Positions 573 to 1,220 of a DNA stretch of 64,000 nt are shown here, in pieces (within the stretch, counting starts at the first letter, position 1; each line of letters begins with the position of its first letter). Where the stretch lies: the sequence record OQ540978.1; one strand, 5' to 3'. Origin of the DNA: Escherichia phage pEC-N1203-2Af.1. Under the pieces are notes generated by a model. That model was not told the DNA's origin. It did not search any database and saw only the letters and a program-made list of their open reading frames with translations. A program made the translations under genes and the position numbers.

Positions 573-1220
573 ATGATGGCGAAGAAAACAACACCTACAA
601 GATATCGAATTCATGGAATCCCTATTAAATACATCTCAAACTATGAAGAGTTTTACAGAGTGAACTGGAAAGTAGTTCACAAGTTCTTCATGTATGATAT
701 CAGAGATTATCATGAAGCAGAAGATGTGGCACAGGAAGTGCTCTTGAACGCTTGGAGATTTGTCTTCGCTAAGCAGGATGAGAGAGTCCTAGAGGACGAG
801 AAAGACCAAGAGCATATGACTTATCGAGTCAAGAACATTATCTGGTCTATACGCTCAAATAGACAGACTGTAGGGGACCGTCGTATCTACTCTATTCCGG
901 AGGCTGATATGTTCCGTACTCCTGATATGGTGGACAGTCCTTTAGAGATTGCTATGGATAAGCAAGATTCTGTTGGTGACCCATTTATGGAGTCTCGTAT
1001 CTTCTATTTCTTCCAAGATTTAAGTGATACGATGGATACTCAGAAGTTAGCTAATATGTTCTCAATGATTTTCTTGGGTATCCCCCATGATCACATTCAG
1101 AAAACTATTGGCATGTCACATGGAACTTTCTACCGTCGTTATGCGGAGTTAAAAGATTTGTATGAATATGTGGTAGAGAAGCACTTTGATAAAGAAGAGT
1201 TTCAAGGGTTGATTACATGA
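573..1220 (+). CDS. Phage-encoded ECF-like sigma factor
   Basis: ORF 215 aa; [18 protein letters not shown] resembles sigma region 2; C-terminal [18 protein letters not shown] resembles the region 4 HTH. Confidence 0.6.

Follow-up and report, generated by a model that had tools for sequence, protein, structure and literature searches.

A gp36-like sigma factor and predicted late promoters in the genome of Escherichia phage pEC-N1203-2Af.1

Phage phiEco32 encodes its own sigma factor, gp36, and six promoters used by the phi32_gp36 holoenzyme share a single consensus element, tAATGTAtA, with the transcript starting 6-8 bp downstream (PMC8948821). A counterpart of this system is described here in a stretch of 64,000 nucleotides of Escherichia phage pEC-N1203-2Af.1 (OQ540978.1), called the window throughout; it comprises a sigma factor gene near the start of the window and promoter elements in front of late genes. 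The mapped phiEco32 promoters precede genes 6, 13, 26, 40, 58 and 68: P6 reads TAATGTAgA, P13, P26, P40 and P58 all read TAATGTATA, and P68 reads aAATGTATA; the same set is given for five relatives, with ECBP2 and KBNP1711 among them canonical (Table S3 of PMC8948821). Within the element, AATGTA occupies positions -14 to -9 and base-specific contacts are made at A-14, A-13, T-12 and G-11, the latter being read by gp36 residues E79 and H80 (PMC12276001). In the cryo-electron microscopy (cryo-EM) structure the N-terminal domain of gp36 resembles sigma2, while the C-terminal, sigma4-like domain reads -37/-34, positions that are touched by Y186 and R187; mutation of the contact bases in the -35 region of P68 (-37G, -34A) abolishes activity at that promoter (PMC12276001). 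A second phage protein, gp79, acts on both sides: it drives sigma4 out of its place in the sigma70 and sigmaS holoenzymes of the host, and it makes the open complex of gp36 more stable (PMC12276001). The system is thus already known, its genetics, biochemistry and structure having been worked out between 2008 and 2025, and the three late promoters discussed below have already been drawn by homology in the SU10 genome paper (PMC4281155). A literature search for mapped transcript starts in Kuravirus returned just the paper on Salmonella phage 7-11 (PMC8948821).

The sigma factor and its partner gp79

Two genes of the window are predicted to encode the components of the system.

576-1220, plus strand: predicted sigma factor gene, ortholog of phiEco32 gp36, 214 amino acids, 213/214 identical to PDB 9M7Y chain F.
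58291-58539, plus strand: predicted gp79 ortholog, 82/82 amino acids identical to PDB 9M7Y chain G.

The original prediction was of a phage-encoded sigma factor in an open reading frame (ORF) of 215 amino acids. That ORF is present at 573-1220 (+) as delimited mechanically; in GenBank and PDB the protein starts one codon later, at the second ATG (576), and has 214 residues. The only PDB match of the ORF is chain F of 9M7Y, labelled 'RNA polymerase ECF sigma factor' (E=2.6e-145), which is phiEco32 gp36 within a cryo-EM open complex (PMC12276001), and the one amino acid that differs is K28R. At the DNA level, 44 of the 645 positions of the gene differ from phiEco32; since 41 of these are third codon positions, the gene appears to be under strong purifying selection. 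The ORF also matches PHROG 1740 (RNA polymerase sigma factor) with E=2e-45.

Of the gp36 residues published as contacts with the core enzyme, the DNA and gp79 (list from Xu 2025, PMC12276001), 23 were checked, and all are intact in the window protein. These are the clamp-helix contacts D44, E47, E49, D50 and E54; the residues facing the -10 element, E79, H80, Y83, R84, W90, S91, S94 and N95; Y186 and R187 in the -35 zone; the flap-tip-helix contacts M138, I142, F166, L167 and F204; and the groove that binds gp79, made of F146, M164 and I169 together with L167. On the other side of this interface, residues L6, L9, V10, M14, R26 and R68 are kept in the gp79 ortholog.

Signatures of sigma regions 2 and 4 had also been proposed for the ORF, and here the picture is mixed. 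The Pfam profile Sigma70_r2 aligns with residues 25-63 at 19.1 bits (E=0.0012), below its cut-off of 24; Sigma70_r4 and Sigma70_r4_2 give zero matches to the ORF at E<=1; TIGR02937 (sigma70-ECF) extends over residues 23-192, thus over both domains, with 23 bits against a cut-off of 42.9. Region 2 is therefore detected only below threshold and region 4 not at all by Pfam, whereas sigma2-like and sigma4-like domains are both present in the solved gp36 structure. Judged from sequence, the ORF encodes a sigma factor belonging to the phage itself, orthologous to gp36; with its two domains it is ECF-like and a distant relation within the sigma70 family.

Late promoters P26, P13 and P6

The window is collinear with phiEco32. 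By megablast, positions 1-6000 match phiEco32 with 93.6% identity on the opposite strand; of the 99 phage records matched, 92 bear the name Escherichia phage. A local BLAST comparison with the complete sequence of phiEco32 (NC_010324, loci L001 and L002) gives a reversed collinear block in which window 1..33604 corresponds to phiEco32 35385..1290, and a second one in which 34684..62964 corresponds to 77533..48161; DNA identity is about 90-95% over most of the length and ~93% overall. By this collinearity the window is identified, on sequence grounds, as a Kuravirus (phiEco32-like) genome in reverse orientation. Its minus strand carries the late structural genes (about 3.7-34.2 kb), its plus strand the early and middle genes. 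Three late-strand sites fall at the positions of mapped gp36 promoters, with the following elements.

8170-8178, minus strand: predicted P26 ortholog, -10-like element TAATGTATA, before the homolog of gene 26 (1472 amino acids); phiEco32 26014-26022.
8197-8201, minus strand: TAAGA (T-R-R-N-A) at -38..-34 of P26, predicted zone for the sigma C-terminal domain from its spacing and the contacts in PMC12276001.
25733-25741, minus strand: predicted P13 ortholog, -10-like element TAATGTATA, before virion-protein and tail-fibre genes; phiEco32 9101-9109.
25760-25764, minus strand: TAAGA at -38..-34 of P13, part of TAAGACCTA.
25773-25794, minus strand: hairpin of an intrinsic terminator at the end of the P6 operon, just upstream of P13; 9 pairs followed by TCTTGTTTTA, -11.9 kcal/mol.
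33209-33217, minus strand: predicted P6 ortholog, -10-like element TAATGTAGA, before gene 6 and the terminase, portal and capsid genes; phiEco32 1677-1685.
33233-33248, minus strand: terminator hairpin GCCTCCCTTGGGAGGC followed by TTTTT, upstream of P6, -11.1 kcal/mol.

Assignment of the sites to the orthologs of genes 26, 13 and 6 is based on synteny with NC_010324, annotation and identity of the flanks. From -45 to +10, P26 is identical to phiEco32 (0/55 differences), P6 differs at 1/55 positions and P13 at 3/55; the transcripts are predicted to start near 8163, 33202 and 25726, respectively. With the element as anchor, an alignment of the three window sites with the six promoters of phiEco32 shows T-R-R-N-A at -38..-34 in every one of them, and the predicted +1 is always a purine. 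Thus the sites at 8170, 25733 and 33209 are, as far as sequence can tell, the late promoters P26, P13 and P6. The link proposed between the 9-mer and phiEco32-type sigma factors is correct, being the tAATGTAtA consensus of PMC8948821, and the terminator said to lie right before the 25733 site is there as hairpin and T-run (25794-25773). The sequence TAATGTAGA, reported as a weaker variant near 33197, does occur, at 33209-33217 (-), 33197 being the ATG of the downstream gene; it is not a weak variant, because it is the ortholog of the mapped promoter P6. A matching distance of 36-38 nt to the start codons was not found: from the end of the element to the ATG there are 38 nt at P26 (ATG at 8131), 33 nt at P13 (ATG at 25699) and 11 nt at the gene-6 ATG of P6. 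P40, P58 and P68 lie outside the window (36.6, 42.9 and 46.9 kb in phiEco32), so the original prediction had pointed to all the mapped gp36 promoters that the window can hold.

What sets the three sites apart is where they lie and how well they score. Only 3.5% of the late region (30.5 kb) is non-coding, and all three are found there, each pointing the same way as the gene that follows; a weight matrix built from the six gp36 promoters of phiEco32 gives them 21.2-21.6 bits (21.2 for P6), the next-best site in the window reaching 12.4 bits, a gap of 9 bits. In the genomes of Bas86, EP335 and TH42, where the sigma factor is only 80-83% identical, the exact element is found in each at P26, P40, P58 and P68; at P13 EP335 alone has it exactly, Bas86 and TH42 having TAATGTATt, and P6, which among these three genomes can be checked in TH42 only, has two copies of TAATGTAGA there. 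The P13 element is also kept in four close relatives from IMG/VR (L004-L007, L003 being phiEco32 itself); footprinting of P13 among the IMG/VR relatives was uninformative, since conservation there extends over all of the intergenic region, and L008, the only distant relative, differs in sequence.

The string TAAGACCTA is common to P13 and P26 at equal spacing. It was considered as a late-specific -35 box and rejected: P6 has no TAAGACCTA, and two more exact copies (492-500 and 24241-24249, plus strand) lie in coding sequence. At P6, the TGGGA at -38..-34 (33236-33240) lies within the 3' arm of the hairpin 33248-33233. A start near 33202, about 7 nt past the P6 element, would give a leader of ~5 nt lacking the AGGAG Shine-Dalgarno sequence (window 33198-33217, minus strand); gene 6 would therefore be a nearly leaderless message on P6 transcripts.

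Very probably, then, the ORF is a phiEco32-type sigma factor that uses P6, P13 and P26 through the host core RNA polymerase with the help of gp79, the mechanism being transferred from phiEco32 by near-identity. The sigma gene belongs to the middle-gene cluster, which in phiEco32 is served by P40, a promoter expected to fall just beyond the window. The protein would bind the E. coli core enzyme in place of sigma70, aided by gp79; its N-terminal sigma2-like domain would read and melt tAATGTAtA at -15..-7, AATG being read as duplex and fork with the G at -11 as first unpaired base, and its C-terminal sigma4-like domain would contact -37/-34. Transcription would start about 7 bp past the element. 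By displacing sigma4 from the sigma70 and sigmaS holoenzymes, gp79 would shut off host and early transcription, and by clamping the C-terminal domain of gp36 it would stabilise the open complex. P6 would serve the packaging and head unit, P13 the tail-fibre unit and P26 the gene-26 unit, with re-initiation immediately after an intrinsic terminator at P6 and P13.

Several points weigh against this reading. The sigma ORF stays below the curated sigma70 profile thresholds (Pfam, TIGR02937). Exact TAATGTATA occurs three times in the window, always on the minus strand (8170-8178, 13398-13406 and 25733-25741), where 0.68 occurrences would be expected, and a count of three is attained in 5 of 100 shuffles; the sites with at most one mismatch number 14, against 19.5 expected, so counts of the 9-mer do not establish a signal by enrichment. 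Close relatives conserve whole intergenic regions, the motif being no better kept than its flanks. Finally, identity, orthology, position and conservation were computed here, while core binding, transcript starts and timing in this phage are transferred from the phiEco32 experiments. The idea of a phage-encoded sigma factor with promoter elements before late genes is nonetheless borne out by the identity to gp36 and the orthology of P26, P13 and P6.

Other promoter-like sites

Further sites resembling gp36 promoters are found before the lysis genes and inside a late gene.

19376-19423, minus strand: candidate gp36-type promoter before the holin/endolysin cassette, a conserved module ~20 nt upstream of TAATATATA; its parts are a hairpin (19423-19410), TAGTA (19407-19403), an 18-nt spacer and TAATGAAAC (19384-19376).
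19349-19357, minus strand: variant TAATATATA, differing from the consensus at one position; the holin ATG follows after 12 nt.
13398-13406, minus strand: third exact TAATGTATA, inside the gene for the gp21 homolog (12707..13741), where it encodes F-N-V-Y.

The first of these could complement the three late promoters: TAGTA-N18-TAATGAAAC (19407-19376) may be an additional, non-canonical gp36-type promoter at which transcription starts anew past the hairpin 19423-19410 to drive the holin, endolysin and tail genes, a tentative proposal that is somewhat more doubtful than not. In an alignment of relatives, the two boxes TAATGAA and T-A-G-N-A show no change in 13/13 genomes and are always 18 nt apart, while the sequence of the spacer and the region nearer the Shine-Dalgarno sequence vary; that alignment also shows conservation of the hairpin behind the tail-fibre gene, two genomes having compensatory changes in it. 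In its geometry, and in having a purine where +1 is predicted (near 19369), the site agrees with all known gp36 promoters, TAATG includes AATG, the four bases read base-specifically (PMC12276001), and the order of hairpin and then promoter is the same as at P6 and P13. Neither RNA structure nor an upstream ORF accounts for the block: no conserved fold was found in it beyond the terminator hairpin, and an upstream ORF was rejected on inspection of the 13 relatives as not frame-conserved. However, at -10 T is changed to A and at -7 A to C, both positions being invariant in the six mapped promoters; the weight matrix gives 7.0 bits, rank 16 in the window; the loose pattern is about as common as chance predicts (10 versus 7.8 +/- 2.9 expected); and the site is not among the six promoters found experimentally (PMC8948821). 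The conserved TAGNA-N18-TAATGAA module before the lysis genes is the one mildly new point of this analysis. If true, it would be an overlooked seventh gp36-type promoter of phiEco32-like phages, with a non-canonical -10 element, and would extend the sequence tolerance of gp36 downstream of -11; a weaker or differently tuned element could time lysis, would drive the downstream tail and ejection genes too, and would account for transcription of a stretch of roughly 11 kb, from the gene-15 hairpin to P26.

The holin gene itself opens with ATG AAA ATG ATG (Met-Lys-Met-Met; window 19325-19336, minus strand), a start kept in 11/13 relatives that resembles the dual-start holin/antiholin motif of lambda S.

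For the 9-mer on the late strand the two copies originally described are exact, and the third, at 13398-13406, had been overlooked. It is a perfect match on the late coding strand and is found in NJ01 and KBNP1711 too, so that it might be an internal late promoter functional only in an NJ01/KBNP1711-like lineage; this is unlikely, and the copy is probably due to chance. It lies within a conserved coding stretch, FNVYQIWPR, of which phiEco32 encodes the peptide F-N-V-Y with TTCAACGTATAC instead of the motif; the match is therefore a matter of which synonymous codons are used. At -38 and -34 this copy has G rather than the invariant T and A, and it scores below 6 bits, while mutations in the -35-region contacts abolish activity at P68 (PMC12276001). 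On these grounds it was rejected as a promoter. A second intragenic site, at 11150 (TAATGTATT, with TGGAA at -38), was likewise rejected, its conservation being no more than codons predict.

Two further matches lie in other parts of these genomes. A seventh perfect TAATGTATA with the -35 region of P68 (TGGTAGTAGATA) occurs in phiEco32 at L001:36681-36712 (+), outside the window and absent from the six published promoters; it is on the strand opposite to P40, ~70 bp away from it, and antisense to genes 41 onward. Counterparts are found in Bas86 (L060:35016-35047), EP335 (L061:35774-35805) and TH42 (L062:38348-38379), thus in 4/4 genomes examined. In the early region of the window, TGGTAGTA-N15-TAATGCTCT occupies 42138-42169 (+) in an intergenic gap of 199 nt and is kept in phiEco32 at 69116-69147; its TGGTAGTA is that of the P68 -35 region, at equal spacing from TAATG.

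That TAATATATA serves as a weak gp36 promoter for the holin gene is very improbable. It had been listed as a weaker variant near 19336, which is in fact the holin ATG, the sequence itself being at 19349-19357 (-). A single mismatch to the consensus, an intergenic position 12 nt from the ATG and a layout like that of P6 speak for such a role. However, although phiEco32 and WFI101126 have TAATATATA, 9/13 relatives carry TAATACATA, ATACACATA or unrelated sequence in its place; of these nine, the three that were scanned (Bas86, EP335 and TH42) keep P26, P40, P58 and P68 exact, and the canonical promoters of ECBP2 and KBNP1711 in Table S3 (PMC8948821) also count against it. In addition, the site has A at -11 in place of the G read by E79 and H80, as well as C at -34, and a start 7 nt past it would cut off the Shine-Dalgarno sequence. 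As a promoter element it is not supported. As for the 9-mers being chance AT-rich words while the late genes use other signals, the low counts given above and the one copy that is plainly intragenic and dependent on synonymous codon choice would fit, but the confinement of P26, P13 and P6 to the small non-coding part of the late region, their second contact zone exactly at -38..-34, and the exact P26 element and five further canonical gp36 sites in each of Bas86, EP335 and TH42 (with P13 exact in one and one base off in two) make it extremely improbable.

Genome context and comparison with known systems

In the phage collection none of the records is identical to the window; the nearest genomes are NJ01 and 172-1, which match about 84% of its first 25 kb with 94-95% identity. 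The segment 34684-34855 of the window matches both ends of phiEco32, left (1-435) and right (77042-77533); since the terminal repeat is there in a single copy, the window crosses the physical ends of the genome, as would an assembly that is permuted or circularised. On the plus strand, sigma70-type promoters with 12/12, 12/12 and 11/12 consensus matches are found at 37381-37408, 37600-37627 and 37905-37933, the first two in a repeated unit, ~219 bp apart; promoters of this kind are what the phiEco32 programme leads one to expect for the early genes. A tRNA-Arg gene (anticodon TCT) is found at 45533-45607 (+), as in phiEco32. Near the sigma gene, a 91-residue DUF3310 ORF at 1600-1875 (+) stands in place of the dNMP-kinase gene 34 of phiEco32, and at 2903-2910 one of the two HNH endonuclease genes of phiEco32 (gene 31) is missing.

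The surroundings of the sigma gene itself gave few signals. A sigma70 promoter was proposed immediately upstream of the gene in the SU10 genome paper (PMC4281155); a consensus scan of window 1-1300 found none. In Bas86 a TAATGTAAA element lies 18 nt 5' of the sigma gene's own ATG (L060:32845-32853, minus strand), without counterpart in the window. At 492-509 (+), within the 3' end of a macro-domain gene and 64 nt upstream of the sigma gene, TAAGACCTA abuts TAATGTTTA; their zero spacing means that no -35/-10 pair is possible, and the junction is probably a coincidence.

The phage would thus follow the programme of phiEco32, the early genes being read from sigma70 promoters and the middle and late genes, after them, with gp36 and gp79, which is of use for genome annotation and for the choice of late-expression insertion sites in engineered Kuravirus phages. 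Genome organisation is alike in the two phages. This one is a separate isolate in which some genes are replaced and the tail-fibre region differs. The sigma factor (213/214) and gp79 (82/82) are the same as in phiEco32, and P6, P13 and P26 are at orthologous positions and agree with their phiEco32 counterparts in the -10 element, in T-R-R-N-A and in the way that terminator and promoter adjoin; the differences are K28R in the sigma factor and the intragenic TAATGTATA at 13398, which phiEco32 lacks.

Salmonella phage 7-11 also encodes a sigma factor, SaPh711_gp47, that steers the host core RNA polymerase to late promoters at similar genome positions (PMC8948821). However, the 7-11 protein is only about 15% identical and its promoters are bipartite, GTAAtg-(16)-aCTA; moreover, phage 7-11 lacks a gp79 homolog, a middle class of genes and host shut-off (PMC8948821). 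The block upstream of the holin gene in the window does not match the 16-nt spacing of 7-11, the bipartite motif as a class not having been searched for.

Bacterial ECF (group IV) sigma factors likewise consist of sigma2 and sigma4, measure about 200 residues and lack regions 1.1 and 3; indeed, GenBank and PDB label the protein 'ECF sigma factor', and TIGR02937 aligns with residues 23-192. Unlike them, the window protein is below all curated thresholds, its -10 element is AT-rich and 9 bp long with minimal -35 contact, and a partner of the ECF anti-sigma type is not present here. The C-terminal domain of gp36 differs too, in having a shortened helix 4 and binding a rotated flap-tip helix (PMC12276001).

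In phage T4, as compared by Xu 2025 (PMC12276001), the AsiA/MotA pair follows a similar logic, a small phage protein disabling the host sigma4 and a second phage protein setting specificity. The sequences are dissimilar, and here the specificity factor would replace sigma70 altogether rather than remodel it. T4 also has a late sigma factor, gp55, which like gp36 recognizes a single -10-like element (TATAAATA); it consists of a sigma2-like domain only and requires gp33 and the sliding clamp.

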